A program made the position numbers and the translations under genes. Under the pieces are notes generated by a model, which had not been told where the DNA came from, ran no database searches, and saw nothing but the letters and a program-made list of their open reading frames with translations. From NCBI GenBank assembly GCA_048320885.1, contig JBLWFJ010000001.1:1605642-1669641 (forward strand): a DNA stretch of 64,000 nt, written 5' to 3'. Numbering within the stretch: the stretch's first letter is position 1; each line of letters starts with the position of its first letter. Positions 3,505-62,259 of this stretch are shown piece after piece. This DNA is from Nannocystaceae bacterium ST9. Lineage in GTDB: Bacteria > Myxococcota_A > Polyangia > Nannocystales > Nannocystaceae.

Positions 3505-3580
3505 GGCTCGACCAGCGTGAGCCCGGACGTGTCACCGCGCAAGTCGAGACCGCCGATCGAGGCCGGCGCGGCCGGCTCGC

Positions 3581-4165
3581 TCAGCCCGAGACTCGATCGA
3601 ATTCGAGACGTCCGTCAGTCAGCGAGGGGAGCGTGAGCCGCGAAGGATCCCGCTCGACGAAACTCGCCGTCGCGCTGCGAATCGCAGCCCGTTCGTCGTC
3701 ACCGTACTCCCGTTCGTAGACGTCCTTCCACGTGGGTCGGGCGTCGCTGCCCTTCGGCCCGCGCGCCTCGTCGACCCCGGGATGCGCGAGCAGGCAGAGC
3801 AGCCAATTCTCGATGGCCCACGTGGGTATCGGCGTGGCCACTCGCTCACCAGGCAGCCGCGCCGACATGTGTCGGTTGCGAAGCGATTCATCCAACTGCT
3901 CTTTGCGCTTCCGATCGCCCTCGCCGTCGCCATCCACGATCGCGACCAAAGCCAAGTCGTGCTGATAGTTGGCGGCGCGCAGCGCCTTGACCTCGTCGGG
4001 ATAGTTGGCGAGCACCCACGCCGCCGCCGATCCCTTCCCCGCCGGAGCAGGCTTGGACCGAATGCGGCGAGCGTCGAACCCCTGGGCCACCAAGACGGCC
4101 CTCGCAAATCGCTCGGTCCGCGAGTCTTCGACCAAGAGGGTCACCCGGATGTTGCGATTACTCAT
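3581..4165 (-). CDS. Small TOPRIM-like protein (RloB/DUF4435-like), partner of the upstream ATPase
   Basis: Starts at internal ATG (MSNRNIRVTLLVEDSRTE). The ATG overlaps the ATPase stop in the sequence ATGAGTAA. It has a conserved acidic residue in LLVEDS and a DxD-like motif in IVDGDGEG, as in TOPRIM folds. Codon usage is atypical for this genome. Confidence 0.6.
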   Translation of the reverse strand: MSNRNIRVTLLVEDSRTERFARAVLVAQGFDARRIRSKPAPAGKGSAAAWVLANYPDEVKALRAANYQHDLALVAIVDGDGEGDRKRKEQLDESLRNRHMSARLPGERVATPIPTWAIENWLLCLLAHPGVDEARGPKGSDARPTWKDVYEREYGDDERAAIRSATASFVERDPSRLTLPSLTDGRLEFDRVSG

Positions 4166-5267: not shown

Positions 5268-5322
5268 GGATCGATGCTCGCGCGAGAGTGTCGCGCGACC
5301 TCACGCGAAGCGCAAGCCTCGC

Positions 5323-6195
5323 TCAGCCCCAGCGGACCGGCAGGCCGTCGGTCAGCACGAAATCGTCGAAGTGCTTCTGCGCGGCGATCATCACGTTGAC
5401 CACGTCGCCGACGCTGGCGTCGTCGCCGACGTCGATGATCAGCGCGCCCTTGTTCGGCCACGCCTTCTTGATCTTGGTCAGCTCGGCCGCGAGCGCCTTC
5501 CAGCCGGTGCCCGACACCTCGGGGGCGAAGCGTGGGTGCGCGGCCTCGATCGTGAAGGTCTCGCCGGCGCCGAGCTTGACCCGCAGGCCGAGCACGTTGT
5601 CGCCGGGCGAGACTCGCAGGCCGCCGGGCGGCAGCAGATAGAAGGGCCGGGTTCGCAGGCCCGCGTTGCCGCCATTGATCAGCAGGGCGAGGTTGGGCGC
5701 GAGCCCGCCGGGCCGGCTCTCGGCGGCTGCGTAGGCCAGCTCGAGCACGGTGTGGGCCGGCACGCTGGCCTCGGCGCCGATCATCACGCGCGTCGGCAGC
5801 TCGATGTCGTAGGTCTGGTTCTCCTCCGAGAGCTGCAACCAGGCGTTGCGGAACCCGTTCCAGACCAGCTCCTTGCAGCCGCTCTTGCACTCGCGCGAGG
5901 CCGGCCCGGCCGGCAGCGCGCCGGCTTGCAGGTCCGCGATCTTCTGGTCGAAGATCGAGAATTGCTGGGGCGAGACGATCGCGTACATGCCCGGCTCGAC
6001 CGGCGCGCCGTTGGCCACCGGCAGCAGCTCGGAGCCGAAGATCGCGTTGATCTGGGTGAGGATCACGGTGTCGAGGCCCTGCAGGACCTCGGTCTGCGCC
6101 GGGGCGGCCGCGAGCGAGTCGGCGAGGCCATCCGATCCAGGGCCGACCAGCAGCGCGCCGATCAGGGGAATGCTCGACAAGACGTGCATGGCCAT
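5323..6195 (-). CDS. Secreted hypothetical protein with ExbD/TolR-like C-terminal motif
   Basis: Signal peptide MAMHVLSSIPLIGALLVG. C-terminal ALIIDVGDDASVGDVVNVMIAAQKHF resembles the ExbD/TolR periplasmic segment. Native high GC3. Lies 4 bp downstream of the lipoprotein gene. Confidence 0.5.
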   Translation of the reverse strand: MAMHVLSSIPLIGALLVGPGSDGLADSLAAAPAQTEVLQGLDTVILTQINAIFGSELLPVANGAPVEPGMYAIVSPQQFSIFDQKIADLQAGALPAGPASRECKSGCKELVWNGFRNAWLQLSEENQTYDIELPTRVMIGAEASVPAHTVLELAYAAAESRPGGLAPNLALLINGGNAGLRTRPFYLLPPGGLRVSPGDNVLGLRVKLGAGETFTIEAAHPRFAPEVSGTGWKALAAELTKIKKAWPNKGALIIDVGDDASVGDVVNVMIAAQKHFDDFVLTDGLPVRWG

Positions 6196-8070: not shown

Positions 8071-8712
8071 GTGGCGACGTCCATCGAGATCGCCGAGCAC
8101 CCGCTGCTGCTGCTGGGTGGATTCGAAGCCGTCTTCCCGGCCCCGCTCGCCGAGCTGACCAGCCCGGCCGAGCTGCGTGCGCTGCTGAGTCTGGCCGCCG
8201 CGAGCCCGCTGCCGCCGACCGACGAGGCCATGCGCAAGCAGGTCCGCGAGCTGCTCCGGCACGGCGGGTTCAAGCCGAGCGGGCGCAGCAAGCCGGCGTC
8301 CGAATTCCTGCTGCGCGCCGCGTCGCAGGGCGAGCTCGGCTCGATCAACCTCGCGGTCGATCTGTGCAACGTCGCCTCGCTGCACTCGGGCCTGCCGATC
8401 AGCGTGGTCGATCGCGATCGCGTCGAGTCGCCGCTGAAGGTCGCGATCGCCGAGCCCGGATCGAGCTACGTGTTCAACGCCTCGGGTCAGACCATCGCCC
8501 TCGACGGCCTGCTCTGCCTGCACGACGCGGCCGGCCCCTGCGCCAACCCGGTCAAGGACAGCCAGCGGAGCAAGACCCACGCGGGCACGATCGCGACGAT
8601 CTGCGTGGTCTGGGGCTGCCGAGCGCTGGCCGAGCGCAGCGCCGCGACGACGAATTGGTATCGAGCGCTGCACGAGCGCTTCGGCGCGCAAGTCCGCGAC
8701 ATCGCCGGCTGA
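8071..8712 (+). CDS. B3/4 domain-containing protein
   Basis: GTG start 3 nt after the MTase stop. The sequence KPSGRSKPASEFLLRAASQGELGSINLAVDLCNVASLHSGLPISVVD is typical of B3/4 (PheT-like) domain proteins. Confidence 0.7.
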   Translation: MATSIEIAEHPLLLLGGFEAVFPAPLAELTSPAELRALLSLAAASPLPPTDEAMRKQVRELLRHGGFKPSGRSKPASEFLLRAASQGELGSINLAVDLCNVASLHSGLPISVVDRDRVESPLKVAIAEPGSSYVFNASGQTIALDGLLCLHDAAGPCANPVKDSQRSKTHAGTIATICVVWGCRALAERSAATTNWYRALHERFGAQVRDIAG

Positions 8713-8744: not shown

Positions 8745-9404
8745 ATGAACTTCTTCGCCCACGCCCTGATCGCCGCGCGCCGCCGCGAAGAGCCAGCGTG
8801 GATCCTCGGCTCGATGCTGCCCGACCTCGCGAGCATGGCCGGCCTTCGCCTGCACGGCGTCGCCAAGCCCGGCCGCTTCAGCCCGCTGCTCGGCGAGGGC
8901 GTCGACTTCCATCACACCTGCGACGACGCCTTTCACGGCGCGCCGATCTTCGTCGAGCTGATGGACGGTGCCCACGCCGAGCTCGAGGCCCGCGGGCTGG
9001 GCTCGGGTCCGGCGATGGCGATCGGTCACGTCGGCGTCGAGCTGCTGCTCGACGGCTGCCTGGTCGCGCGCCACGGCGTGCCGATCTGCTACCGCGAAGC
9101 GATGGAGTTGGCCTCGATCGCCGGCGAAGATCTGAATTGGCGCGACGACAGCCACGAGCACCCGCAGCGCTGGCAGGCGCTGTGCGGGCGACTCCGCGGC
9201 GCGCCGGTGCCCGAGGCCTACGCCGATCCGGGCTTCGTCGCCGATCGGCTGATCCAGATCCTCGCGCGCCGTCCGATGCTGGCGGTCGAGCCGGGCAACG
9301 AGCCCGAGGTCCACGCCTGGGCCAAGCGCTGGGTGCCGAAGGTCGCCGCGCGCGAGCTGGCGCTGCTCGATCAGGTCGAAGACCGACTCGCTCGCGCACG
9401 CTGA
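8745..9404 (+). CDS. ACP phosphodiesterase-like protein (AcpH/DUF479-like)
   Basis: N-terminus MNFFAHALIA resembles AcpH MNFLAHLHLA. An HxHxxxD-like segment is present (VDFHHTCDD). The listed ORF has a junk R-rich N-terminal extension, so the call uses the internal ATG. Confidence 0.5.
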   Translation: MNFFAHALIAARRREEPAWILGSMLPDLASMAGLRLHGVAKPGRFSPLLGEGVDFHHTCDDAFHGAPIFVELMDGAHAELEARGLGSGPAMAIGHVGVELLLDGCLVARHGVPICYREAMELASIAGEDLNWRDDSHEHPQRWQALCGRLRGAPVPEAYADPGFVADRLIQILARRPMLAVEPGNEPEVHAWAKRWVPKVAARELALLDQVEDRLARAR

Positions 9405-9411
9405 GCCGAGC

Positions 9412-10623
9412 TCAATCCGAGAGCCCGAGCCGCCGCTCCCACACGCGAAACACCACCGTCGCGACCACGACCAGCATCGCCGCGAACGCGAAGGTGCCCG
9501 GGTAGTCGACGAGCATGACGACCGCCCCGAACATCGGCCCGCCGATCAGCAGGCCGAAGTCGAAGAGCGCGGTGAACATCGAGATCGCGCTGCCCCGCTC
9601 TTCGGGCCGCGCTCGCATGACGACCAGGGTCGACAAGATCGGGAACGCGTAGCCGTGGCCGATCCCACACAGCAGCCCGGCGAGGATCAGGTGCTCGGGC
9701 TCGCTGGCCAGGGCCATGACCACGAGCCCGGTCGCGCCGCTGAACAGCGCGGGGATCAGCACGCGGCGCAGGCCGAGCCGCTCGGGCACCCAGCCGAAGA
9801 ACGCACGCAGGATCGTGGCCGCGAGCGCGTAGGTCGCGAAGAAGCCGCCCATCGTGCCGAGCTCGGGCGCCTCGATCAGGTAGGTCTTCAAGAACGTGAA
9901 GTAGGCGGCCAGCCCGGTCGAGAACGCCAGGCCGACGAAGAACACCGAGCGCAGCTCCTTGGCCGCGACCGAGGTCCAAAACCCGCGCGCGGCCACGCTG
10001 CTGCGCTGGAGGGTCTCGGGCAGCGGGATCGTGATCAGCAGGCCGGCGCAGGCCGAGCCCAGGGCGATCCACAGCAAGTTCGAATAGTCGCCACCGACGA
10101 TCACGAGGTCGCCGAGCAGCCCGCCGATCGCCAGCGGCAGCATGCCGGAGATCCCGAACAGCGCGATGCCATGCGCCCGCCGCTCGGCCGGGACCAGGTC
10201 GGCGGCGATCGTGAACAGCACCGAGAAGAGCATCGCCTCGGCGGCGCCCTGGATCACCCGCACGCCCGCGACCATCAGCCAGACCGGCAGGCCGCCGCCG
10301 ATCGTCGAGGCGTCGAGCAGCACGAACGCGGCGGTCGCCAGCATGTGCACGCCCCCGCCGATCAACACGACGATCCGCCGGCCTCGCGTGTCCATCACCC
10401 GGCCGACCAGCGGGCGCGAGAGGATCGCCGACACGGCCATCGCGGCGAACAGCACCCCGATCAGCAGCTCGCCGGCGCCCCGGCCCTCGAGCCAGCCCGA
10501 GAGGTGCACGAAGCAGTAAAAGCCGATCCCGTGCAGGAAGTTGGCCGCCGCGGCCAGCACGAAGGGCAGGCTCCACAGCGACTTCCTGGCGGGCACGCTC
10601 GAGCCGGCGTCGGTCGCGAGCAT
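9412..10623 (-). CDS. MFS transporter
   Basis: About 12 predicted TM helices with a typical MFS loop motif (GRVMDTRGRR). Start at internal ATG MLATDAGSS. Confidence 0.8.
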   Translation of the reverse strand: MLATDAGSSVPARKSLWSLPFVLAAAANFLHGIGFYCFVHLSGWLEGRGAGELLIGVLFAAMAVSAILSRPLVGRVMDTRGRRIVVLIGGGVHMLATAAFVLLDASTIGGGLPVWLMVAGVRVIQGAAEAMLFSVLFTIAADLVPAERRAHGIALFGISGMLPLAIGGLLGDLVIVGGDYSNLLWIALGSACAGLLITIPLPETLQRSSVAARGFWTSVAAKELRSVFFVGLAFSTGLAAYFTFLKTYLIEAPELGTMGGFFATYALAATILRAFFGWVPERLGLRRVLIPALFSGATGLVVMALASEPEHLILAGLLCGIGHGYAFPILSTLVVMRARPEERGSAISMFTALFDFGLLIGGPMFGAVVMLVDYPGTFAFAAMLVVVATVVFRVWERRLGLSD

Positions 10624-10628
10624 CCCGC

Positions 10629-11900
10629 TCAGCTCTCTCGTTCGCGCATGCGCGTGCCCAGCATCAGCGCCAGCTTGACGTTGATCAGCGCGACCAGGCC
10701 CCCGAGCATCAAGGGCGCGCCGGGATCGATGTGCTCGAAGAGCGGGCCGGCGACCGCGGGGCCGCTGACCCGCGCGAGCGCCGACGACGACTCTTTCATG
10801 CCCATGTTCATGCCTTGGTTCTCGGCCGTCGACACCCGCGAGACCAAGGCCGAGATGGTCGCGGTCGTCAGCCCGTTGCCGCCCGCCATCAGCATGCCGC
10901 CGAGCCCGTAGCAGGCGAGCGCCGGCAGGCTGGCCCCGCCGTCGGCCGCGGTGGTCGCAAACCCGAGCAGCGCGGTCAGGTGGCCGACCCCGCCGATCGT
11001 CAGCAGCCCGAACCCGACCATGGTCAGGCCGATCGTCAAGGTCGTGGTCTCGCCGAATTTGCCGACCGCGCGACCGACCAGCAGGCCCTGGAAGATCACC
11101 ATGTTCACGCCGATGAAGGTCATGAAGATGCCGGTCTCGCGTCCACCCCAGCCGAACATGTGCTTGCTGAACAGCGGCAGCGTCGACTCCATGCCCGCGA
11201 ACGCGACGAAGAAGCAGAACGCGATCACGATCAGCCAGGCCATCGGCGTGCCCTGGACGCGGCGAGCCGCGTCGCGCATGCGCGGGAGCAAGGGGGGCTT
11301 GGGCGCCGCGTCGACGCGAGCCTGCGCCGCGCGATCGGGGAAGTGGGTCTCGGGCAGCCAGATCGCCGCCATCCCGAGGTTGAGCAGCGAGAGCAGGGCC
11401 GCCACGAAGAAGGGCAGCGAGGGCATGGCGTCGGTCGCGAGCAGCCCGCCGATCGCCGGGCCGAACACGAAGCCCATGCCCATCGCGGCGCCCATCATGC
11501 CCATGTACTTGGCTCGCTCCTTGGCCGGGACGAGGTCGGCGACGTAGGCGTGGGCGGTCGAGACGTTGGCCTTGCAGCAGCCCGCGACCACGCGAGCGGC
11601 GAACACCAGCCACAGCGCGTTGGCGAACCCGAGCACCAGGCTCGACGCGACCGAGCCGAAGATCGAAAACAGCATGATCGGTCGGCGACCGTGGCGATCG
11701 CTGAGCCGACCGAGCACCGGCGACATCACGAACTGCGCGGCCGAGAACGCGGTCGAGAGCAGCGTGACGGCGGTCGCCGAGGCGTCGAACGACTCCGCGT
11801 AGTAGGGGAGGATCGGCAAGATGATCCCGAACCCCGCGAGATCGAGGAACAAGGTCAGCGCCACCGTCGAGAGCGCCCGCCTACGTTCGCGCTCGGTCAT
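10629..11900 (-). CDS. MFS transporter (DHA1/tetracycline-efflux-like)
   Basis: MTERERRRALSTVALTLFLDLAGFGIILPILPYY followed by GRLSDRHGRRP motif A. 423 aa. Tandem with the upstream MFS gene. Confidence 0.8.
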   Translation of the reverse strand: MTERERRRALSTVALTLFLDLAGFGIILPILPYYAESFDASATAVTLLSTAFSAAQFVMSPVLGRLSDRHGRRPIMLFSIFGSVASSLVLGFANALWLVFAARVVAGCCKANVSTAHAYVADLVPAKERAKYMGMMGAAMGMGFVFGPAIGGLLATDAMPSLPFFVAALLSLLNLGMAAIWLPETHFPDRAAQARVDAAPKPPLLPRMRDAARRVQGTPMAWLIVIAFCFFVAFAGMESTLPLFSKHMFGWGGRETGIFMTFIGVNMVIFQGLLVGRAVGKFGETTTLTIGLTMVGFGLLTIGGVGHLTALLGFATTAADGGASLPALACYGLGGMLMAGGNGLTTATISALVSRVSTAENQGMNMGMKESSSALARVSGPAVAGPLFEHIDPGAPLMLGGLVALINVKLALMLGTRMRERES

Positions 11901-19055: not shown

Positions 19056-22000
19056 TCACGGCGCGGGCGCGAACATCCGCGCGAGCTTGGCCTCGACCGC
19101 GACTCGAACCGGGTGGCTGGCGTCGATCCGTTGAAGCAGGGCGCTCAGCTCGGGCAACACCTGGCTGCCGGCCATGACTTGTCCGGTGCCGAACAGACTG
19201 GCGACGTAGCCGGGGCCGGCCTGGACCTGCTCGAAGGGCAGGTCGGCGTCGCGGGCAGCCTCCCAGGCGTCGCGCGCCCAGACCAGCGCCTCGCTCGGCT
19301 GCTTGCGCGCGAACACGTCGAGCTCGGCGAGCAGGATCAGACTCGGGATCGTCCGCGGCGTTCGGCGCGAGCCGAAGAGCTGGGTCTCGGCGGCGATCGA
19401 CGCGTGCAGCAGGCCGTGCGCCTCGTCGACCCGGCCGCGATGCACGAGCAGGGTCGCGAGCGTGTGCATGGTCATGGTCACCTCGGCGTGCACGTCGGTC
19501 GCATGGATCTCGCGCTTGATCGCCAGGCTCTCGCGCAGCAGCGACTCGGCCTCGTCGAAGCGAGCTTGGCCGAGCAGGGCGCTGGCCAGGCCGTGCAGGG
19601 TCGAGGCGACGTCGGCGTGGCGACGGGTCGCGAAGATTCGAACTTGCAGCTCGAGGTTGGCGCGGTAGCAGGCCTCGGCCTCGTCGTACTTGCCCTGCGC
19701 GAGCAGGGCGTTGGCCAAGCCGTGCGCGACCGCGGCGAGCTCGGGATGATCGACCTGGCCGTAGGCTCGCTGCTTGATCGCCAGCGCCTCGCGGGCGAGC
19801 TGCTCGGCCTCGGGCGCCCGCCCGCGATGAAAGGCGAGGTTGGCCAGGCCGGCGAGGCCCGCCGCGATGTCGGCGTGCTCGCGCGAGCCGTGCACGCGCT
19901 CGAGGATTGCGATCGACTCGCGATAGGCGGCTTCGGCCCGGTCGTACTCGCCCGATCCAGACAGCGCGTTGGCGAGCCCGTGCAGGGACGAGGCGACATG
20001 CGGGTGCTCGCGGGTGCCGAACACCCGCTGCTTGACGACGATGCTCTGCTCGAACGCCGCGATCGCGTCGGCGTACTTGCCTTGGCAGTCGAGCACGTCG
20101 CCGAGCCCTCGCAGCACGGTCGCGAGCGAGGGGTGATCTTCGTCGCCGACCAGCGAGCGCAGGATCGCGGCGGCCTCGCGATAGTCGGCCTCGGCCTCGC
20201 CGAGCTCGCCGAGCTGAGCCAGCGTGTTGGCCAGGCCGTGCAGCGCGAGCGCGACCTCGGGGTGCGCGTGCCGACCGAAGCCCTGCTCGATCTTGGCGAT
20301 CGCCTCACGATAGTTGGTCTCGGCCTCGCGCAGCTTGCCTTGCCGCAGCTGGGCCGACGCGAGCCCGGCCAGCGCGATGCCGAAGTCGGGGCGAGCCTGC
20401 AGACCGAGGCGCTCTTCGATCGCCAGCGCCTGGCGATACTCGGCCTCGGCCTCGCCGTACTTGCCTTGCCCGAGCAGGATGTTGGCCAGACCGGCGTGCG
20501 AGATCGCCAGGTCGGCGGGGCTCTGCCCGGCCTCGCCGGCCAGCGCGATCGATCCGCGAGCGTGGACCTCGGCCTCGCGGTAGCTGCCCATCGACTGGGC
20601 CGCGGCGCCGCAGTGGTGCAGCCAGGTGTCGCGCTGCGCGAGCGGCCAGTCGACCTCGCGCAAGCCATCGAGGAACTCCTTGCGCAAGCGGTAGAGCCCG
20701 GCTTGGTGCATGGTCGACGAGATCGCGATCATCACCCGCTCGGCGCCCTCCCACTGCTCGGCGGCGAGGTAGTGGCCGAGCGCCTCCTGCAATCCGGCGA
20801 GGTCGCGCTCGAGCATGCCGCACTGCTCGCGATGTCGACCGAGCAGCGCGCGACCGGACTTGGTCCAGGCCGGGCGTCCGGCGAACTGCTTGCCGACCGA
20901 CTCGCGGACCAGCGAGTGCAGGGCCCACGCGTCCTCGCCCGCGAAGCGACCGAGCAGACCGAGCGCGGCCAGGCGGTCGTCGCCGCTGCCGAGCCGCTCG
21001 ATGATCGCCCGCGGGACCGGCCGCTGGATCGCCGAGCACTCGCCGAGCAGGGCGAGCTCGTCGGGCGCGAGACAGGCGATCAGGCTGCCGAGCGCGAGCC
21101 GCTGCTCGACCTTGGCCCCGAGCCCGGCCAGCGCGGGATCGAGGTAGGCCGCGCGCATGATCTCGACGTCGCCGTCTTCGTCGAGCGGCGGCGCGCCCGG
21201 GAGCTTGCGCAGGCTGATCAGGCCGTTGATCCAGTCGACCGTGCCGGGGTGACCGTCGATCCGCTCGGTCAACTGCTCGCGCAGCGGCTCGGGCAGGCGT
21301 TGAAGCGGGTGCTTCCACGCGGTCATGCGATAGATCTCGGCCTTGCTGCACGGCGGGATCGACTCCCAGCAGCCGCACTCGCCGGCCGGCAGGTGGCGCG
21401 AGGTCATCAGCAGGGTCGTGTCGCCCTCGATCTCGCGCGCGAGGCAGGCGAAGAACCCGACCAGCGCCTCGTCGCGCCACTCGACGCCGCGCTCGGAAGA
21501 CGCCGCGCTCGCCTGCATCGACTCGAGGTTGTCGAGGTAGAGCACCCCGCCGCGAGCCAGGCCGAGCAGGAGTCGAGCGAGCGCCTGCGGGCGATCCTCG
21601 GCCCGGTCGAGCGCCTCGAGCCGCGCGTCCCAGTCCGCGGGCTTGCGCGGATGCTTGCCGATCACGCGCCGAACCAGGCCGAGCAGCCAGACGAAGGGCG
21701 TGGTTCGAGTGGCCTGCTCGACGTAGTCGCCGATCGGCAGGGCGATCACGTCGCCGGCGTCCTCGCTGCAGATCAGCGCGAAGCGGGTCATGGTCGTGGT
21801 CTTGCCGAGCCCGCCGAGCCCGTGGAGCCCGAGCGCTCGCTCGCCTCGCTTGCGGAGCTTGCGAAGCCGCGCGAGCAGCCGGCGACGACCGATGAAGCCG
21901 TGCTCGAGCACCGGCAGGCCCTCGGCGCCGGCCAGCTCGATCCGCTCGGGTCGCAGCACGTCCTCGAGCTGCTTGGTCTGGCGCAGCTTGCCGGCGACCA

Positions 22001-23960
22001 GGTCGCGATCGGGCCCGCGATGATAGAGCGCGAGCATCGACCAGGCGAAGGGGTAGCGAACGAAGCCGAGCGGGGTGTCGAGCACCTCCTTGCTGCTCAG
22101 CCGCGCGCGACGAACGGCCTCGACGGTCCGCTCGGTCGCGACCAGCTCGCGAAACAACGCGCGATCGATCCGGGCGATCAAGACGTCGGGGATCGGCCCG
22201 AAGTAGCCGAGCACCTGCGGGATCCCGCGGCGATGAAGTTGAGCGGCGATCGAGACCTCGCGGGCCGAGGCCGCATTCGAAGCCACGTCGCCCTCGGAGG
22301 CCACGCCCACGCTCGCCCCGTGCCCACACGAGAGCCAGAACGCGGCCGGAAGGCGCGAGGCGGCGGCGGCCAGGCGATCGCAGACGCTGGCGATCTCGAT
22401 CGGCGCGGGCCCGCCGTCCTCGTCCTCGAACAAGAGCTCGCCCGGCGCACCGCGGCCCGAGAAATGCAGGATCGTCGGCCGCTCGATCGCCCGCACGGCC
22501 TCGACCAGATCGTCGAGCGTGCCGAGCTCGGTGAAGCGCACGTAGCCGCGCAGCGGATCGAGGGCGCGGGCGATCCGGTACGAGGCGGCCTCGAGATCCT
22601 GGCTCGAGCCCTCGTCGGTCTCGGGCGCGGCCACGTGCGCGACGATCCGCGGGACGGTCGAGTCCTCGGGCAGCGGCTGCGCGCCGGGGACCACGACCTC
22701 GCGGATCAGGTTGAGGCTGCCGTTGCCGACCGGGAACTCGCCACGCACGCAGACCAGCTCCCAGGGCAGCAGCAAGACCGCGTCGACCTCGGCCGGATCA
22801 CCGTCGACGCGCAGCGCGAGGCTGGCCGGCTCGCTCATCGCCGCCGACCCGATCAGCTCGACCAGCCGCGCGGCGGCCTTGCTCGGCAACACGCCGAACA
22901 GCCGCTCGCCGATCGCCCGCGCGCGGGTTCGAATCCCGGCCGCGAGCGCCTCGCTCTCCGAATCGAGCTCGCCGTGGCGGGTGCACGAGAGCCCGCGCGC
23001 GGCCAGGGCCTGCAGCTCGCCGAGTTCGACCAGCGAGAGCTTCGGCGGATCGATCTCGACCCGCTCGCCGAGCGCCTCGACGGTCCAGCGCGGCCCGGGT
23101 CGGATCACCAGCGCGAGCTCGCGGGCGCCGGCGATCACCACCTCGTCGGCCAGCGCCTCGAACCAGCGCGGCAGCGTGACGAAGTCGGGCAGCTCGACTC
23201 GCTGGATGTGCTTGAGCACCTCGGCGTAGCTGCGCCCGTCGGTCCACTTCAGCGCCTGCAAGGTCGCGCCCTCGCCCGGGCCGATCACCGCGCGCCACAG
23301 GTGGAGCAGGCGACGCTGCTCGGCCGGCAACTCCGAGGTCCAGCGCAGCAGCCGAGGATCTTGCAGCGAGCAGCCGACGAAGAGCACGCGATTTTGCCGG
23401 AGCAGCACCTCGAGCTCGTGGATCGCCAGCGGATGGCGGCGCTCGTAGAGCGAGTAGCTCTCGCCGGTCAGCACCGCCGAGGTCCAGTCGTCCCAGGTCC
23501 CGTGGATCGCCAGGTAGAGCGGCAGGCCCTCGCCGGCCAGGTGCAGGCCGCGGTCGAGCTGCGAGAAGCGATGCGGCGCGCCGATCATCTCGCAGGCGCG
23601 CCGCAGCAGCAGGTCGTAGCAAGTGTCGATGATCGCCTTGAAGCGGCCGGCGGCGATCAGCTTGGCGAGGTGGAAGTGCAGCGGGCCCGGCTGGGGCGTG
23701 CGGCCCTGCTTGCGAAACTCCTGCTCGAGGAAGCGATGCAGCTCGCCCTCGCCGAGGTTCTGCACGAAGTCGTCGATCCACGCGTAGGGATCGTCGGACG
23801 CGGGCGGCTGCCAGTTGTCGGCCTCCTTGCGGCGCAGCGCGTCGACCAGCGCCCACAGGGTCGGCAGCGGTGGGTCGGCTTGGCAGCTGGCGCCCGCGCC
23901 GAGCCAGAGGATCGGCCGGCTGTCGTTGCTGAACAGGCCGCGGATCTTCTCGACGCTCAC
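19056..23960 (-). CDS. SIR2 - CHAT (caspase-like) - NB-ARC/STAND NTPase - TPR multidomain protein (NLR/Avs-like), about 1634 aa
   Basis: SIR2-like N-terminus: ILWLGAGAS, TCYD, VLFVGCSLQDPRLLRW. CHAT: LPWELV, ILHFSGRG, FWLSCGHGAS, LGYFGPIPD. P-loop GLHGLGGLGKTTT plus Walker B VLYLDNLE. About 10 TPR_12-type repeats (HPxVAxxLxxLAxxLxxQGKYxEAE). Start set at GTG 23960 (VSVEKIRGLFS) with GAGG 4 nt upstream; the upstream 64 codons of the listed ORF are R-rich junk. Confidence 0.85.
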   Translation of the reverse strand: MSVEKIRGLFSNDSRPILWLGAGASCQADPPLPTLWALVDALRRKEADNWQPPASDDPYAWIDDFVQNLGEGELHRFLEQEFRKQGRTPQPGPLHFHLAKLIAAGRFKAIIDTCYDLLLRRACEMIGAPHRFSQLDRGLHLAGEGLPLYLAIHGTWDDWTSAVLTGESYSLYERRHPLAIHELEVLLRQNRVLFVGCSLQDPRLLRWTSELPAEQRRLLHLWRAVIGPGEGATLQALKWTDGRSYAEVLKHIQRVELPDFVTLPRWFEALADEVVIAGARELALVIRPGPRWTVEALGERVEIDPPKLSLVELGELQALAARGLSCTRHGELDSESEALAAGIRTRARAIGERLFGVLPSKAAARLVELIGSAAMSEPASLALRVDGDPAEVDAVLLLPWELVCVRGEFPVGNGSLNLIREVVVPGAQPLPEDSTVPRIVAHVAAPETDEGSSQDLEAASYRIARALDPLRGYVRFTELGTLDDLVEAVRAIERPTILHFSGRGAPGELLFEDEDGGPAPIEIASVCDRLAAAASRLPAAFWLSCGHGASVGVASEGDVASNAASAREVSIAAQLHRRGIPQVLGYFGPIPDVLIARIDRALFRELVATERTVEAVRRARLSSKEVLDTPLGFVRYPFAWSMLALYHRGPDRDLVAGKLRQTKQLEDVLRPERIELAGAEGLPVLEHGFIGRRRLLARLRKLRKRGERALGLHGLGGLGKTTTMTRFALICSEDAGDVIALPIGDYVEQATRTTPFVWLLGLVRRVIGKHPRKPADWDARLEALDRAEDRPQALARLLLGLARGGVLYLDNLESMQASAASSERGVEWRDEALVGFFACLAREIEGDTTLLMTSRHLPAGECGCWESIPPCSKAEIYRMTAWKHPLQRLPEPLREQLTERIDGHPGTVDWINGLISLRKLPGAPPLDEDGDVEIMRAAYLDPALAGLGAKVEQRLALGSLIACLAPDELALLGECSAIQRPVPRAIIERLGSGDDRLAALGLLGRFAGEDAWALHSLVRESVGKQFAGRPAWTKSGRALLGRHREQCGMLERDLAGLQEALGHYLAAEQWEGAERVMIAISSTMHQAGLYRLRKEFLDGLREVDWPLAQRDTWLHHCGAAAQSMGSYREAEVHARGSIALAGEAGQSPADLAISHAGLANILLGQGKYGEAEAEYRQALAIEERLGLQARPDFGIALAGLASAQLRQGKLREAETNYREAIAKIEQGFGRHAHPEVALALHGLANTLAQLGELGEAEADYREAAAILRSLVGDEDHPSLATVLRGLGDVLDCQGKYADAIAAFEQSIVVKQRVFGTREHPHVASSLHGLANALSGSGEYDRAEAAYRESIAILERVHGSREHADIAAGLAGLANLAFHRGRAPEAEQLAREALAIKQRAYGQVDHPELAAVAHGLANALLAQGKYDEAEACYRANLELQVRIFATRRHADVASTLHGLASALLGQARFDEAESLLRESLAIKREIHATDVHAEVTMTMHTLATLLVHRGRVDEAHGLLHASIAAETQLFGSRRTPRTIPSLILLAELDVFARKQPSEALVWARDAWEAARDADLPFEQVQAGPGYVASLFGTGQVMAGSQVLPELSALLQRIDASHPVRVAVEAKLARMFAPAP

Positions 23961-24001
23961 GCCTCGATCGTAGCGCCCGGTGGGTTGGTTACGATGCGCG
24001 A

Positions 24002-24952
24002 GTGAGCGTCGATCGTCGGACCTGGCTCGCGGGTGTGTCGACCACGATCGGCTGCTTGGCCTGCGAACGCGCGGCTCCGCGGACGGCGAGCGAACGCGAG
24101 CCGACTCCGAGTGAGGATCGCGAGCCTTTGCCACCCGGCCACGAACCCCCACCGTCGGGTCTGCCGATCGGCGACGAGCCTGGCCAGGATCTCGCGAGCT
24201 TCCTCACCGAGCCCCGCCGCCCGATCACGGCCGAGCGGCGCACGCTCGAGCTCTTGCCGATCGGCGAGTACCCGCGCGGCTTCGTCGTCGAGTACGAGCG
24301 CGTGCACCTGGTCCGCAGCCCCGAGCTCGAGCTGCTGCGTCGCTTCGCCAGCGCGTGGTTCGGCCTGCCGGTGCGGGTCGCCGCGGCGCTCTCCGACGAG
24401 CTGCTCGAGACCCAGGCCCCCCAGCGCGAGTTCGAAGGTCGTCGGCAGTTCGACGCCGAGGCGCTGCTCGGCACGCTCGCCCCGCTGCGATCACCCGACG
24501 CCCACTCGCTGCTCGGGTTGACGCTCGAGGATCTCTGGTCGCCCTCGCTCGAAGGTCAGTGGGTGTTCGGGCTGGCGGCGGTCGAGCGCGGGCTGGCGAT
24601 CCACAGCATGCTCCGCTACGACCCCGGCCTGCGCAGCGCCGACGAGCGCCCACCGGACTTCGAGCGAATCATCCGCGATCGTGGCTTGCGGGTGCTGGTC
24701 CACGAGCTCGGTCACCTGCTGGGCATCCGTCATTGCGTGCACTTTTGTTGCGTGATGAATCCTACTGCGGGGCTCGCCGACCTCGATCGCCTGCCCTTGC
24801 GACTATGCCCAATCTGTCTCGACAAGCTGAACGCGGCGACCGGCGTCGATCGACTCGCTCGCGCGCTCGCGCTGCGAGACCTCTACGCCGAACTCGGGAT
24901 GATCGTGGAGCGCGACTGGATGAATGCACGAATCGCCGAAGCGACTCCATGA
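24002..24952 (+). CDS. Archaemetzincin-like zinc metalloprotease (peptidase M54-like), Tat-lipoprotein
   Basis: HELGHLLGIRHCVHFCCVMN...LCPICLD matches the archaemetzincin HExxHxxGxxHC...C...CxxC signature. N-terminus DRRTWLAGVSTTIGC is a Tat motif with a lipobox. Divergent from the STAND gene. Confidence 0.75.
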   Translation: MSVDRRTWLAGVSTTIGCLACERAAPRTASEREPTPSEDREPLPPGHEPPPSGLPIGDEPGQDLASFLTEPRRPITAERRTLELLPIGEYPRGFVVEYERVHLVRSPELELLRRFASAWFGLPVRVAAALSDELLETQAPQREFEGRRQFDAEALLGTLAPLRSPDAHSLLGLTLEDLWSPSLEGQWVFGLAAVERGLAIHSMLRYDPGLRSADERPPDFERIIRDRGLRVLVHELGHLLGIRHCVHFCCVMNPTAGLADLDRLPLRLCPICLDKLNAATGVDRLARALALRDLYAELGMIVERDWMNARIAEATP

Positions 24953-28314: not shown

Positions 28315-28563
28315 CTAGCGACGCAGCACGAGGCCGACGATCTCGACCCCGCCGGGGTGCTCGGGCGCCTCGCGGATGTCGAGCGCGATGTCGGCCAGCC
28401 CGAGCTCGGCGAGCGCGAGATCGAAGTGCTCGCGCAGGTGCTCGGGCGAGCCACCCGCGAGCGCGCCGAGCCGGACCTCGATGCCGGCCAGCGCGGCGCC
28501 CTGGCGCTCGGCCTCGCTGCGGGCGGTGGCGATCATGCGGCGGATCAGACCGGACTCGTGCAT
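28315..28563 (-). CDS. HypA-like N-terminal domain protein lacking the zinc-finger half
   Basis: MHESGLIRRMIATARSEAERQGA... resembles the HypA N-terminus (MHELSL...). There are no cysteines and the protein ends after 82 aa. Start taken at internal ATG. Confidence 0.45.
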   Translation of the reverse strand: MHESGLIRRMIATARSEAERQGAALAGIEVRLGALAGGSPEHLREHFDLALAELGLADIALDIREAPEHPGGVEIVGLVLRR

Positions 28564-28625
28564 GGATGCGCCATCATGCAACGCGGGTCCGACGTAGTAC
28601 ACTGCGCCGCACCACTCGCTAGGCC

Positions 28626-29156
28626 ATGCAGCTCAACGACATCGAAGCCGAGCTGAGCTACGCGTACCTGCACGCCGTCGCCTCGCACGCGGGCGTCGCC
28701 TGTCAGGCGGCTGCGCGGACCCACGACAACCTCGGCATCGATGCCACGCTGACGCTCGTTCGGGACTTCGGGCCCAAGGCGACACTCTCTCGCATCACCC
28801 TGCACGTCCAATTGAAAGCGACGACGAAGCCGCCTGCGGTGACGAATGGCCGACTCGCCTACTTCCTCAAGGAGATCGAGTACGACCGCCTGCGTCGCGG
28901 CGGCGCCCTGCCTCCGGCGCTCCTCGCCGTGCTCTTCCTCCCCGAAGATCCCTCTGATTGGCTGAGCCACTCGACCGAACGTCTCGCCCTCTCGCGCTGC
29001 GCATATTGGCTGAGCCTCTCCGGCGCACCCGCGAGCAACAACAAGACCGGACAAACCGTCTATTTTCCTCCGGACCAAGTCCTCTCGCCCGATGGCTTGC
29101 AGCGTCTCTTCGAGCGCGTCGCTCACCGCGAGGATCTCCGCTATGTCGTTCCTTGA
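28626..29156 (+). CDS. DUF4365-like protein (predicted PD-(D/E)xK-fold)
   Basis: EAELSYAYLHAVASHAGVA...DNLGIDATLTL...LHVQLKAT matches the DUF4365 consensus (E...D.GID...QLK). GC3 is clearly lower than in flanking genes. Confidence 0.65.
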   Translation: MQLNDIEAELSYAYLHAVASHAGVACQAAARTHDNLGIDATLTLVRDFGPKATLSRITLHVQLKATTKPPAVTNGRLAYFLKEIEYDRLRRGGALPPALLAVLFLPEDPSDWLSHSTERLALSRCAYWLSLSGAPASNNKTGQTVYFPPDQVLSPDGLQRLFERVAHREDLRYVVP

Positions 29157-30273
29157 CAAATCCCTGGCTCGTCAGCTTCGACCGATGGCCATCAAGCAGT
29201 ACGCGGAGTCTCGCGGCTGGTTGCCGATCCCGCTCGAAGCGGCTCGTTTTTGGTTGTTCCGGCACCCCGAACAGACGCTCCAGCAGATCCAGATTCCGAT
29301 GGACGAAGACGACGTCGGCTTCGTCGACGCCATGCGGGATATCGTCCAAACGCTGTCCGAGCTCGAGCGGCGCCCCGAAGACGAGATCGTCGGGGACCTC
29401 CAGTGGCCCGACGCGGACATCCTGCGCGTTCGCGTCGTCAGCCGTGACAGCGAAGCCGGCCAGCTCTCGTTGACCGGCGATGTCGAGTTGCGCGAGGGCA
29501 TTCGACGAGCCCTGCTGGCATCCGCATGCTCGGTGATCACTCCAGCGCGCTTTCATCCTCGTCTCAGCCGCAACGAGGCCGATTCCTTGCTCGCGGCCTG
29601 CCGCGCCGGTCAAACCGAACGCGGCAGCTATGTCGTCAAGGTCATCTGTCCGCTCGATGCCGTCAGGGACGTCGCGGATCAGACCCTGCCCTTCACGCGA
29701 AAGGTGACGACCCACTTGATGACCTCGACTGCGCGCTTGATCGACGACATCGAGCACGATCGACTCGACGAGTATGAAGCGCCCGACAAGCAGACCTTGA
29801 GCTGGAACCTCTGCGACGCGCTGCTGCGCATGCGACCCGAGCGAGATGCGGGCCACATCGACATCTTGGCTCATTGGGCCGCCGATCGCCGCTTTCCACC
29901 CGAGGCGCCCGCGCGCGTCTCGATCAAGGCCGAGTACTTCTCGGCGATCGAGACGATCGCCGGAGTCCTGCGCCCGAGCGCCAGCGTGCCCAAGGAAGAG
30001 CAGCTCGTCGGCACGGTCGAGCAGCTGGCCGGCGTCGTGGGTGAGGATGGTCGTCGGGCTGGCGAGGTCCAATTCACCGTGTTCAAGGACGGCGAATCGG
30101 TGCGAACGAAGGCCATGCTCGATGTCGATCAGTACGAGGTGGCGATGCGCGCACACCAAGAAGGCAACGCGCTCGTGGTCCTGCATGGCATATTGTATCG
30201 GGGCTCGCGGATCAGCTGGGTCAAGCCAGTCAGCCGCCTGCAACCACTCGGTGATCAATCAAGCGGCGACTGA
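29140..30273 (+). CDS. Hypothetical protein (378 aa), partner of the DUF4365-like gene
   Basis: ATG MSFLDKSL overlaps the upstream gene by 17 nt. Same atypical codon usage. No recognisable motif. Confidence 0.6.
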   Translation, partial: AMSFLDKSLARQLRPMAIKQYAESRGWLPIPLEAARFWLFRHPEQTLQQIQIPMDEDDVGFVDAMRDIVQTLSELERRPEDEIVGDLQWPDADILRVRVVSRDSEAGQLSLTGDVELREGIRRALLASACSVITPARFHPRLSRNEADSLLAACRAGQTERGSYVVKVICPLDAVRDVADQTLPFTRKVTTHLMTSTARLIDDIEHDRLDEYEAPDKQTLSWNLCDALLRMRPERDAGHIDILAHWAADRRFPPEAPARVSIKAEYFSAIETIAGVLRPSASVPKEEQLVGTVEQLAGVVGEDGRRAGEVQFTVFKDGESVRTKAMLDVDQYEVAMRAHQEGNALVVLHGILYRGSRISWVKPVSRLQPLGDQSSGD

Positions 30274-30711
30274 GCCGACGATTTCACGAACCCGCGCCTC
30301 GAGATCGGCCGAGCTCGCGACCAGCTCGGGCGAGACCTCGCCGCCGAGCTCGAAGCGCCCGCCCTCGATCCCGAGAAACTCCCCCTCCGGCAGTCGCCGG
30401 CCCAGCGCGCGCGCCAGCTCCAGCGCCTCCGCGGGCCCGAACCCGTGCGACGAGAGCTGGGCGAGCGCCTTGGCGTGCTCGGGCAGCTCGGCGAGCGTGA
30501 AGTGATGCAGGGTGCCGGGTGCCCGCCCGCTGACGACGACGTCGAGCAGCAGCACGCGATCGTCGGTGTCGAGCAAGTCGAGCAGGCCCGCGCCCGGTCG
30601 ACCGGCGAGCACGAGCGCGACGCTCGGGTCGCCCGCGAACATTCGCTCGGCGAGCGCGAGCATGAAGCCGTCGTCGCCGCGCATCGCCGAGCCCAGGGCG
30701 ATCACTCGCAC
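30259..30711 (-). CDS. Hydrogenase maturation protease (HycI/HoxW/HyaD family)
   Basis: GTG start VRVIALGSAMRGDDGFMLALAE carries the GxxxxGDDGxG motif. Overlaps the large-subunit gene end by 10 nt. Confidence 0.8.
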   Translation of the reverse strand: MRVIALGSAMRGDDGFMLALAERMFAGDPSVALVLAGRPGAGLLDLLDTDDRVLLLDVVVSGRAPGTLHHFTLAELPEHAKALAQLSSHGFGPAEALELARALGRRLPEGEFLGIEGGRFELGGEVSPELVASSADLEARVREIVGSVAA

Positions 30712-42426: not shown

Positions 42427-43506
42427 CCTCGAGCTTCGCTCGAGGAACCCCCTCTTCTCGGCTCTGCCTACGTGGGGCATTGCGTGGTTCCCCTGCTCGG
42501 GCCGTCTCGCCCTCGCGGGGAATGGACAGCGGGTTCGCTTCGCTCCCCTTGCTTCCGCTTCGGCGACGGCTCGTCGCTTTTTCTTTGCGGGAGGTCGGAC
42601 AGAGAAACTTGGCCCCATCGCCTGGCCGCTTGTCATTGCTGGGTTTGTCGTGCTTTGCACGATTTTTCCCACGCCTTCTCAACCGATGTTGGAACTGTCG
42701 AGTGGGCCGGACATTGGAATGCCGACCGGGGATCCAACCGCGACACCTACGCCCCAAGGCGGATGCAATCCTGAGCAGCATACACGCGTCGCATCATTCA
42801 GTTTCGGGCTCTCGCTGCTCGGCGAGCGCCTGGAGGCCGCGATGGCCCTCTGCTCATTCTTCGAACGCGTTACAGTGATCAGTGTGGTCGCGTGAGCGCG
42901 ATGGCTCCACCCGCTCAGCTTGGACTCGACTTGACATTCGCACGCATCAATGATATGATTCATGCGATGGTCGATTGTCTGGAATCCATCGAACACCTCG
43001 CCCGGCAGATCGCTGAACTCGCTCGCTGCATCGATACGGTCAAGCACGCTTGGCTCCGGCGAATCCGTGAATTCGACGCCCGCAATGGTTGGGCAGACAC
43101 GGGCTGCGTCTCGATGGTCGCGTGGCTCTCGTGGTGGACGGGCACCAGCAACAAGACGGCCAGCGAGCATGTCCGTATCGCCCGGGCGCTCGGTGAGCTG
43201 GCTTTGATCGATCAGGCATTCGCAGCCGGTGAGCTGACCTATTCCAAGGTCCGCGCGCTCACCCGCGGCGCCACGCCGGCCACCGAACAAACCCTGCTCG
43301 ACGTTGCCACGACCGCGACCGCCAGCCAGCTCGACAAGATCGTCGCTGGATTGCGGCGAGTCCGAGTGTACGCAAATCCCGAGCAAGGCGGTGGCGAAGC
43401 GCCGCGCCGATTCGCCCGCTTCACCGAGACGCCGGATGGCATGGTTCGAATCGTCGCTCAGGTCGGGCCCGAGGAGGCGCTCGTCCTGCAGGCGGCAATG
43501 GACGTG

Positions 43507-43533
43507 GCGCAATCTCCCGCGGGGGATTCGACG
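43507..43533. repeat. Palindromic element copy (GCGCAATCTCCCGCGGGGGATTCGACG) inside the HNH ORF
   Basis: Encodes AQSPAGDS. One mismatch from a perfect palindrome. Confidence 0.7.
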
Positions 43534-43555
43534 GCGCCCCGCGCGGCCAACGACC

Positions 43556-43580
43556 CGCAATCTCCCGCGGGAGATTTCGG
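43556..43580. repeat. Palindromic element copy (CGCAATCTCCCGCGGGAGATTTCGG) inside the HNH ORF
   Basis: Encodes PQSPAGDF. Core AATCTCCCGCGGGAGATT is a perfect 18-bp palindrome. Confidence 0.7.
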
Positions 43581-45103
43581 GTCCGACCAAGCCGACGCGC
43601 TGGTCGCCGTCGCGCGCGGCTATCTCGATCGCAAGCCGACCACGCGCGGCACCGGTTGCGAGCTGATCATGATGACCACGCCCGAACAGCTCGCTCACGG
43701 CCCCGAGGGGATCGGTGGATTCCTGCGCGATGGCACCCCGTTGCCGCTGCACGTGGCCCGAATGCTGGCCTGCGACGCCTCGCGGGTCGACGTGAGCGTC
43801 GGCGAGTCGGGTGAGATCCTCGACGTCGGCCGCTCGCGTCGAACCATCCCCACGGGGATCGGTCGCGCGCTGACGCTGCGCGACGGTGGCTGTCGCGTGC
43901 CGGGCTGCGGGCGCTCACGGCATCTGCAGGCCCATCATGTCGAAGCATGGGCAGAAGGTGGGGAGACCTCGATCTCGAACCTCGTGCTGCTCTGCCCCGG
44001 CCACCACGGCTTGGTCCACGAGGGCAAGCTGCACGTCGAGGTTCGGGCGGGCAAGCTCGAATTCATCAATGCCCACGGTCTGACCATCGAGCCTACGCCG
44101 AACCACAGCATCGACCCCGAGACCGTCGCCGCTTGGCTCGACGCTGCCGAGCCCCCGGGCGAGCCGCCGATGGCGTGGGACGGGAGTCGGCTCGACCTTC
44201 ACGAGGTGATCGGTTGGATGATGCTGTCCGAAGGATTTCGAGCGGACGTGGGCGCGCGGGGATGATTGCGCAGGGCTCATCTCGGGCCTTCTCGAGGGCA
44301 TGCTCGCCTGGTCAGCTCGGGCGTGGATCCGCCTCGCCTACGCCCTCTGACCAACGAAGCGCGATCGCCCGCTCGAGTCGAAGTCGGCCGCGAAGCGCTG
44401 GGGTCAGGAGCGGACCTGTTCCAACACGGTCGGCCCCCAACGTCGCGGCGCAAACAGGTCTCAGCAAAAACAACCAGGGAGGCCCCCGGCATGGTGGCCT
44501 CCCCGTCGCTTCGAGCGGTTCCGGTTCTCTTGTTTCGAGGCTCCCGCAGCGCCTCGGGGTCCGTTGTCGCGTCGTGGATCGCGGGCCGACGCGGTGGTCG
44601 ATGGCTTCGACCGAGTTGCTGCCGGGGCAGAGCCCCGACGACTCGACTCTCGTCGAGTGGCGAGCTCGCGCTCGCGTCAGGAGTGTGCGTCCGTCGAGGT
44701 CGGCTCGAGACTGGCTCGGGAGCGCCTCGACTTCAGGGTGGCGCCGCGCTGGGCGGGCGCCGGTCCCGGGCTAGGAGGGTCCTCCTTTCGGGGGTTGAGC
44801 CCGATGGTTGCAAGTAGGGGCTTGGAGCGGACGTCGTGATTCGATCATGCTCACCTCCTGTTGCCGGGTGCCTGAAGCGACACGCCGATCGTAGCAGCGT
44901 CCGTTCGCTTCGCTCACTACTAATTTTTAGGGAGGCCCTTCCGCGGGCCTCCCCCGGGCCGGCAGAGCCGTCCCGGGTCCTCCTCCTCGCAGGCCCTTCG
45001 GGCTTGCTCGCTTCGCCTTCGCTCGCTCGGTCCTTCAGCCACGGTTCAATTTCGCGACGAGTCGGTGGCGACTCTCGCGTGGAGGGAATTCCTTTGGCCG
45101 GCT

Positions 45104-47134: not shown

Positions 47135-47229
47135 CGGAAGCGCACAGGAATCGAACCTGCCCGAGACGCTCGTCGCGTCTCACACCGGTTTTGAAGACCG
47201 GGGGCCGCACCAGCCGGCCATGCGCCTCC
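47135..47229 (-). tRNA. selC: tRNA-Sec (selenocysteine, anticodon UCA)
   Basis: The minus-strand sequence is near-colinear with E. coli selC: 8-bp acceptor stem (GGAGGCGC / GCGCTTCC, one G-U), D-arm GGCCG-GCUGGUG-CGGCC, anticodon loop CUUCAAA, 7-bp long extra arm GAGACGC-GACGA-GCGUCUC, T-arm GCAGG-UUCGAUU-CCUGU, discriminator G. No CCA is encoded. Confidence 0.8.
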
Positions 47230-60655: not shown

Positions 60656-60677
60656 GCTCGCGTCGGTTCAGAACATG

Positions 60678-60704
60678 GCGCAATCTCCCGCGGGAGATTC
60701 GACG
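60678..60704. repeat. Palindromic element copy GCGCAATCTCCCGCGGGAGATTCGACG
   Basis: Identical to the solo copy at 17781..17807. Confidence 0.7.
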
Positions 60705-60725
60705 CATCCTCGCCGCCAACGATCC

Positions 60726-61641: not shown

Positions 61642-61643
61642 TC

Positions 61644-62252: not shown

Positions 62253-62259
62253 GGATCAG

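Follow-up and report, generated by a model that had tools for sequence, protein, structure and literature searches.

A predicted two-gene defence cassette, the phage defence candidate PDC-M02, inserted in the hydrogenase operon of a myxobacterium

The gene pair and its insertion site

The 64-kb stretch of DNA analysed here (the window), which is about 70% GC and whose proteins are 100% identical to those of the myxobacterium Nannocystaceae bacterium ST9, carries two overlapping plus-strand genes, A and B, lying between hycI, which encodes a [NiFe]-hydrogenase maturation protease, and a short hypA-like gene (Table 1). Open reading frame (ORF) calls bore out the pair at the coordinates proposed in an earlier reading made from the DNA alone (the sequence-only reading), and Pfam did the same for the two flanking genes. 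In PADLOC-DB, A and B match exclusively the components of one system, PDC-M02, which is among the 'phage defence candidates' (PDC) of Payne et al. (bioRxiv 10.1101/2024.01.29.577857). Both are full length, on the same strand and in the order A then B, and on these profile matches the identification of the pair as PDC-M02 is near certain. It is a new example of a catalogued candidate system, not a new kind.

For comparison of the site we used contigs found by way of the hydrogenase large subunit encoded beside the cassette: L017 and L018 (metagenomic; large subunit 89% identical), L019 (75%) and L020, from Plesiocystis pacifica SIR-1 (72%). These share one operon, encoding a cyclic nucleotide monophosphate-binding protein, an Fe-S/NAD subunit, the small and large hydrogenase subunits, HycI and a HypA-like protein of 82-88 aa; in 4/4 loci hypA starts 19 nt before the hycI stop codon, with no gene between. 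In nucleotide alignment to L017, homology stops at window position 30294 (L017 9731) and restarts at 28572 (L017 9775); 1,721 bp, at 28573-30293, are specific to ST9 with respect to L017, and about 43 bp of the ancestral junction have been replaced, the boundaries being accurate to about +/-10 bp. Because the relatives' hycI and hypA overlap with nothing between them, this segment is an insertion, near certain as such: a horizontally acquired 1.7-kb cassette that lies, in antisense orientation, between the hycI and hypA genes of an operon for a cytosolic [NiFe]-hydrogenase. The earlier suggestion that the pair had inserted into, and split, a hyd-hyp cluster thus stands, on the empty sites of four related loci.

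Through the insertion the C-terminus of HycI has been shortened and rewritten: the ST9 protein, of 150 aa, ends ...ARVREIVGSVAA (...EIVGSVAA), while those of the relatives, of 162 aa, end ...CTSxx, reading through the hypA start. The 3' end of hycI now overlaps the B stop codon by 15 nt, and hypA has, through the same event, lost its 19-nt overlap coupling with hycI and lies 1.7 kb downstream, behind the antisense cassette. Hydrogenase maturation in ST9 may be impaired or rewired. The hypA-like gene itself had been described as truncated, a view that the relatives do not sustain. The HypA variant of Nannocystaceae operons keeps the MHE nickel-binding N-terminus and lacks the CxxC...CxxC zinc-finger insert of canonical HypA, and short orthologs directly follow hycI in L017 (9784-10032), L019 (2240-2506) and L020 (9844-10110); judged from these orthologs, the zinc-finger-less gene of 82-88 aa is native to the clade and not a product of the insertion.

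The A/B overlap suggests translational coupling. Its presence had been noticed before, at 17 nt and with a B protein of 378 aa; the overlap holds, and the figures become 14 nt (by ORF coordinates) and 376 aa. The start of B is variously placed: at an upstream ATG (29092) in the ORF listing, at 29185 in the NCBI record (362 aa, hypothetical protein ACNOYE_06895), and at the ATG at 29143 in an alignment with 45 homologs. As this alignment, the coordinates of the PADLOC profile match and a Shine-Dalgarno-like motif, GAGGAT, about 11 nt upstream all favour ATG 29143, the public record probably has B starting 14 codons late, and this is why the 376-aa protein, looked up by exact sequence, matched no record.

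The cassette deviates from its surroundings in composition, an effect that is real but moderate. Within the 64-kb window, to which all GC and codon statistics refer, G+C content at third codon positions (GC3) is 0.791 in A and 0.786 in B, as against 0.84-0.93 in nine flanking genes, in agreement with the lower GC3 claimed by the sequence-only reading. Seven AT-ending codons that it had called frequent make up 6.4-7.4 per 100 codons in A and B; that is too few for the word, though about threefold more than the 1.1-2.9 of the flanks. GC content of the insert is 0.643, compared with 0.698 +/- 0.030 for 1.7-kb intervals (z -1.85). Intervals as GC-poor as this make up 5.4% and are grouped in three islands, of which the insert is one; here the dip, to 0.63-0.65, coincides with 28573-30293.

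A consensus scan of the window cassette revealed no strong sigma-70 site and no usable promoter or terminator. TTGACA-like boxes stand about 60-70 nt upstream of A in six related loci, and the leader of the ST9 cassette probably carries a promoter of its own. In three distant loci, gene A is immediately preceded by tandem repeats. Two Sandaracinaceae loci (L010, 1580-1746; L011, 9041-9286) have a 21-bp unit in 6-8 copies, and L006 (9388-9510) has a 41-bp unit in three. These repeats might have a regulatory role or belong to an upstream ORF.

Table 1. Coordinates of the cassette, its parts and the adjoining genes, numbered from the first nucleotide of the window.
Feature	Position	Strand	Remarks
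Inserted segment	28573..30293		1,721 bp; relatives lack it at the orthologous hycI-hypA junction
Leader upstream of gene A	28573..28625	+	53 nt
Gene A, PDC-M02A	28626..29156	+	176 aa; stand-alone DUF4365 / DREN-type PD-(D/E)xK
Gene B, PDC-M02B	29143..30273	+	376 aa; PADLOC profile and family alignment
B N-terminal domain (about residues 1-105)	29143..29457	+	predicted structure
B middle alpha/beta domain (about residues 106-283)	29458..29991	+	most conserved motifs
B C-terminal domain, predicted OB (oligonucleotide/oligosaccharide-binding) fold (about residues 284-376)	29992..30270	+	SSB, RPA, PriB-like
hycI, [NiFe]-hydrogenase maturation protease	30259..30711	-	Pfam HycI; 150 aa
hypA-like gene	28315..28563	-	82 aa; Pfam HypA 31.2 bits, profile positions 1-68 of 112

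Protein A, protein B and the family to which they belong

Residues 9-164 of protein A match Pfam DUF4365 (PF14280) along profile positions 2-138 of 139, at E 1.1e-16 and 61.6 bits (cut-off 24.3). All 25 PADLOC matches listed for A are to PDC-M02A, the best being PDLC04287 (E 1.2e-61; residues 3-173 on profile positions 6-177 of 182). An AlphaFold2 (AF2) model of A, with a predicted local distance difference test score (pLDDT) of 88.6, found its best Foldseek matches in the Protein Data Bank (PDB) among DREN-APAZ chains of the SPARDA system (9qcc, 9vx6, 9jsz, 9jt2, 9qbp and 9qbq); in all, 13 SPARDA chains match it at E 1e-7 to 4e-4, with probability 1.00 and query-normalised template modelling scores of 0.49-0.61. 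Its next structural neighbours are archaeal Hjc resolvases (E 6e-4 to 1e-2) and EcoRV. Both the DUF4365 assignment of the sequence-only reading, whose quoted motifs are present, and the PD-(D/E)xK-like core that it proposed are thereby supported.

Five residues of A, namely D34, G37, D39, Q62 and K64, are invariant among 34 homologs, the acidic pair having the spacing D-x-x-G-x-D. Going by the model, A has a PD-(D/E)xK nuclease fold, with D34, D39, Q62 and K64 as putative catalytic residues. TmuRE, a DUF4365 nuclease, is inactivated by mutation of its Q62/K64, the counterparts of Q62 and K64 in A (PMC10810196), and toxicity of EAT16, a toxin of an extracellular contractile injection system (eCIS), requires the motif DxGxD...QxK (PMC11297309). 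As for control of activity, the DREN of SPARDA is on its own monomeric and inactive; filament formation forces it into tetramers, which act as a collateral nuclease (PMC12205087).

Protein B matches PDC-M02B, best through PDLC04323 (E 6.2e-116; residues 8-370 on profile positions 8-372 of 374). Pfam holds no family for it, whether the whole chain or its three domains are submitted separately, and NCBIfam has none for either A or B. The absence of a recognisable motif from B that had been reported is therefore confirmed; its description as an orphan is not, since a profile search of 1.84 billion representatives clustered at 50% identity returned, with E <= 1e-3 as threshold, 5,591 clusters (2,084 with E <= 1e-30), almost without exception 365-400 aa long. 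B should not be annotated as an orphan.

The AF2 model of B (pLDDT 93.1, predicted template modelling score 0.82) is made up of three parts. The N-terminal domain has a core of helix, three strands and helix, followed by a further helix and strand, and is possibly like HicA or a double-stranded RNA-binding domain (dsRBD); we take PDB entry 1whz to be a HicA/dsRBD-like protein, a point on which a literature search brought nothing relevant. The middle domain contains the motifs most conserved in the family (ACRAGQTExGSY, CPL, PFxR, NLC and LRP). The C-terminal domain is modelled as a five-stranded barrel with an inserted helix, an apparent OB fold resembling those of SSB, RPA and PriB. No solved analogue of the whole chain was found in a fold search of the PDB, and no Argonaute-like or APAZ-like structural match was seen. 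Nor did Pfam, applied to B whole and by domain, detect a helix-turn-helix (HTH) or ribbon-helix-helix (RHH) motif.

The catalogue entry to which the pair belongs arose from a survey in which genes embedded in BREX, DISARM and type I restriction-modification (RM) loci were used to search RefSeq for cassettes, from which 145 candidates were curated (Payne et al., bioRxiv 10.1101/2024.01.29.577857). PDC-M02 is cassette CAS_00021 (FAM_01850>>FAM_00842), counted 894 times (Supplementary Table 8 of the same work); we assumed from the gene order that FAM_01850 is A and FAM_00842 is B.

Distribution, neighbourhoods and movement of the cassette

We assembled 20 distinct loci with a B homolog besides that of the window, 11 of them from species-representative genomes, six from contig look-ups and three from plasmids; one further look-up led to the same contig as L003, and hence is not counted. 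The 11 genome loci, obtained with a narrower B alignment, are all from Myxococcota or from unclassified metagenome-assembled genomes. A DUF4365 gene or its remnant was found directly upstream of B, on the same strand, in 20/20 loci: intact in 17, disrupted by frameshifts in two (L005 and L006), and in one (L024) reduced to its last codons (...EELRY), which remain before the start of a solo B (9600-11221). The two genes overlap by 1-14 nt in the eight loci where the junction was read, and the genes are still paired where B is as little as 25% identical (L026). Its hosts include Myxococcota, Alphaproteobacteria (Phaeobacter), Clostridia (Pusillibacter) and Spirochaetota (Entomospira), four or more phyla. 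B homologs are present on 12 plasmids and were not found in phage records or IMG/VR contigs; A and B weakly match two PHROGs of unknown function.

The damaged copies (A in L005 and L006, A lost from L024, and B frameshifted in L004), together with the lack of a recognisable consensus promoter in the window copy, could be taken to mean that the ST9 cassette is a decaying remnant without current function. To this we attach very little credence: the window ORFs are intact and full length with respect to the family profiles, A and B retain every family-invariant residue, and both the coupling overlap and the Shine-Dalgarno-like motif are unimpaired.

Annotation of neighbouring genes was displayed for 10 of the loci (L012, L014, L016 and L021-L027), and in six of them the neighbours are of defence or mobile type. 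They are two Mrr-type nucleases and two transposases in L016; three DUF262 proteins, an abortive infection (Abi) protein, HicA and RelBE in L023; an MmeI-like methyltransferase, an SNF2 helicase and DUF1016 in L024; a DUF87 ATPase with a methyltransferase, and dCTP deaminases, in L025; SNF2 and DEAD helicases, with DprA nearby, in L026; and an Mrr_cat_2 helicase-nuclease in L027. The partnership with DUF4365, on whose conservation the sequence-only reading had made its proposal depend, is thus kept, intact or as a remnant, throughout the 20 loci.

A small, translationally coupled operon with a toxic-type nuclease, found on plasmids and, on Entomospira plasmid p28, beside the toxin-antitoxin (TA) genes HicA and RelBE, might instead be an addiction module without antiviral role, in which A would be the toxin, B its constant neutraliser, and loss of the pair lethal to the cell. 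The solo B of L024, with A deleted, would be expected if the toxin were dispensable or dangerous. Against this, the putative antitoxin would be over twice the size of the toxin and have three conserved domains, unlike type II antitoxins; the toxin gene precedes that of its partner; no DNA-binding HTH or RHH autoregulator was detected; and the family came to light through genes lying within BREX, DISARM or RM loci. We regard an addiction role as unlikely, and a rival only in part, for it overlaps with the Abi category.

The resemblance of A to Hjc resolvases, its closest structural neighbours after SPARDA, and that of the B OB domain to SSB, RPA and PriB, would also suit an accessory module for DNA repair or recombination carried on mobile DNA, in which A is an Hjc-like structure-specific nuclease and B an SSB/PriB-like protein, and the presence of DprA and helicases near the L026 copy is in keeping with it. 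Such a role appears quite improbable in view of the patchy, horizontally transferred distribution and atypical composition of the cassette, its absence from the closest relatives, neighbours that are restriction or Abi genes and not rec or ruv, and the behaviour of the DUF4365 members studied to date, which are non-specific toxic DNases.

In related Myxococcota the cassette occupies different chromosomal places. On metagenome contig L014, whose B is 60% identical to that of the window, it adjoins, on the other side, a gene closely homologous to the short hypA (phmmer E 4e-34), the gene order being A, B, hypA in place of the hypA, A, B of the window. A perfect 34-bp direct repeat, AGCGGCTCAGCGCAGCGTGAGCCCGACGATCTCG, brackets the L014 unit, at 9390-9423 and 11153-11186, 1,763 bp apart. 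Its right copy is the 3' end of hypA; its left copy is followed by TGCATG (the hypA start, on the other strand), giving a mini-ORF, MHEIVGLTLR*, which looks like a hypA internally deleted between two CTCG microhomologies. The margins of the unit are nearly the same in L014 and the window: 51 and 53 nt before A, 24 and 20 nt after B. In L008 the cassette is flanked by a direct repeat of about 88 bp (6050-6138 and 8207-8294; one indel, 94% identity over the last 62 bp), formed by the 3' end, stop codon included, of a gene for a TauE/SafE-like membrane protein. In L007 a tRNA-Pro (CGG) gene (2786-2862), whose 3' end is turned towards the cassette, lies 40 nt past the B stop. This is a classic position for island integration; a search of 1 kb upstream of this cassette for a duplicated tRNA-Pro end yielded background only.

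Nine other loci showed no flanking direct repeats, and neither conserved cassette termini nor terminal inverted repeats were found across the loci compared. The window insert holds A and B only, with no recombinase gene and with no flanking direct repeat; having neither a recombinase nor att direct repeats, it does not classify as an integrase-borne island. The right junction of the window (30259-30285) was considered as a relic of the L014 34-bp repeat and rejected, since its score of 12 lies within background, many sites of the GC-rich window scoring >=15.

The sharp limits of the unit, which correspond between the window and L014, its contact with the 3' end of a gene in four cases (hycI for the window, hypA for L014, the TauE-like gene for L008 and tRNA-Pro for L007), flanking direct repeats in L014 and L008 and the lack of an internal recombinase raise the idea of a minimal, integrase-less selfish cassette, whose nuclease and OB-fold, single-stranded DNA (ssDNA)-handling protein would themselves direct the 1.7-kb unit to gene 3' ends. 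This, too, we consider very improbable. The termini are not conserved and carry no inverted repeats, most loci, including the window, are without flanking repeats, the left repeat copy of L014 resembles an internally deleted hypA, and some copies lie beside recombinases or transposases able to act in trans. Since each repeat duplicates part of the gene that happens to flank the cassette, and the lengths are unequal, the duplications seem better explained by homologous (Campbell-type) integration through flanking homology than by a fixed target-site duplication. We therefore claim no mechanism for movement of the cassette.

Several features elsewhere in the window were noted. On the minus strand, 19056-24152 encodes a 1,698-aa protein with SIR2_2, CHAT and AAA_16 (STAND ATPase) domains and many TPR repeats, with weak PADLOC matches (TPR, ThsA); its architecture is NLR/Avs-like and it could be an immune gene. 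A second low-GC island, at about 3500-5300 (GC about 0.60), includes an ORF (4158-5267, minus strand) for an AAA_21/SMC-type ABC ATPase which in PADLOC comes closest to PDC-M25A, HEC-01A and mad3 (E about 1e-24); the ORF that overlaps it downstream, 3581-4255, has no PADLOC match. This island may hold another acquired defence gene. The lowest GC of the window, 0.55-0.58, is reached at about 60500-62800, probably foreign DNA, where a pentapeptide-repeat protein (60923-61822) and a MORN-like protein (62260-62769) are encoded on the minus strand. A protein with DUF222 and HNH endonuclease domains is encoded at 42892-44265 (plus strand), in a mildly low-GC stretch (about 0.63), and a tRNA-Sec gene (anticodon TCA) lies at 47135-47229 (minus strand).

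Predicted function and relation to known systems

Taken together, the evidence leads us to favour, with moderate confidence, a defence system of general sensor-plus-nuclease type. The proposal of an uncharacterised defence or Abi module made by the sequence-only reading agrees with the existing prediction for PDC-M02, and none of the three outcomes that it had named as refuting it was encountered; defence is a prediction still. The most likely function of such a system is anti-phage or anti-plasmid; its specific trigger and mode of activation are much less certain. The analysis shows the insertion, membership of PDC-M02, a conserved and coupled gene pair, a nuclease fold in A that keeps the catalytic residues, and an OB fold in B; contact between A and B, the cue, oligomerisation as the means of activation and the defence phenotype are inferred.

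We propose that B serves as sensor or scaffold, because in A we have a non-specific DNase of toxic type, of a kind that in its best-studied relatives needs induced oligomerisation, and it is always paired with a larger protein in which one module or more is of nucleic-acid-binding type. B would be made in fixed ratio with A through translational coupling, and by physical interaction would hold the nuclease inactive. On infection B would bind a cue, most plausibly single-stranded nucleic acid of the invader or a protein-nucleic acid complex, and in its bound form might let A oligomerise into an active form, after the manner of the SPARDA DREN. Active A should then degrade DNA indiscriminately, so that invader and infected cell alike are stopped by abortive infection. 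The pair would be, in effect, a guide-independent counterpart of SPARDA.

Several observations weigh against this assignment to defence. The window copy lies outside any defence island, its neighbours being hydrogenase, oxygenase, sigma-factor and kinase genes, and housekeeping genes surround the pair in four of the 10 annotated loci (L012, L014, L021 and L022). Sequence searches of the PDB with A alone, with the A profile and with the B profile gave no meaningful match, and the fold search of the PDB that found none for the whole B chain found no solved analogue of its middle domain either. No paper naming or testing PDC-M02 was met with in the literature searched; studies that tested PADLOC candidates picked others, and in one of these 4/8 candidate systems were protective.

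Among known systems, SPARDA has its nuclease type in common with the pair. A has the DUF4365/DREN fold, with SPARDA chains as its best structural match, and it keeps the QxK and acidic residues essential in TmuRE (PMC10810196); the output is likely to be the same, namely collateral, non-specific degradation of DNA after oligomerisation. Unlike SPARDA, the locus has no gene for a short Argonaute (MID-PIWI), B having no Argonaute-like match and the flanking genes being hycI and hypA, and A is not fused to APAZ, its 176 aa comparing with about 390-420 aa in the SPARDA effector chains. EAT16 shares the DUF4365 domain with DxGxD...QxK, but is one multi-domain protein with a second domain, is injected by an eCIS and lacks a B-like partner (PMC11297309). 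Divona, an integron-cassette system reported to be anti-phage, also shares DUF4365 and its motif, but as part of one multi-domain protein in which it is fused to a RecB-like nuclease plus crr6, and it too has no B-like partner (bioRxiv 10.1101/2024.07.02.601686). With archaeal Hjc and minimal PD-(D/E)xK nucleases A has the alpha-beta-beta-beta-alpha-beta core in common; it differs from Hjc in a C-terminal extension of about 70 residues, in QxK for ExK, in its patchy, mobile distribution and in its obligate partner gene. With respect to PDC-M02 itself, the ST9 copy has the same two-gene architecture as homologs from four or more phyla, but is situated inside a hydrogenase operon, not embedded in a BREX, DISARM or RM locus.

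The ST9 locus offers a clean natural case of the cassette, in which the empty site is resolved to about 10 bp and both genes are intact, and in which the cost of insertion to the host, a rewritten HycI C-terminus and the loss of hycI-hypA coupling, is measurable. The family that it exemplifies comprises more than 5,000 clusters at 50% identity, and in it the collateral DNase known from SPARDA has a partner that is not an Argonaute. Should PDC-M02 prove truly defensive, a compact two-gene system would join the catalogue, and the DREN effector could be coupled to a wholly different sensor, one that is probably guide-independent and based on an OB fold.

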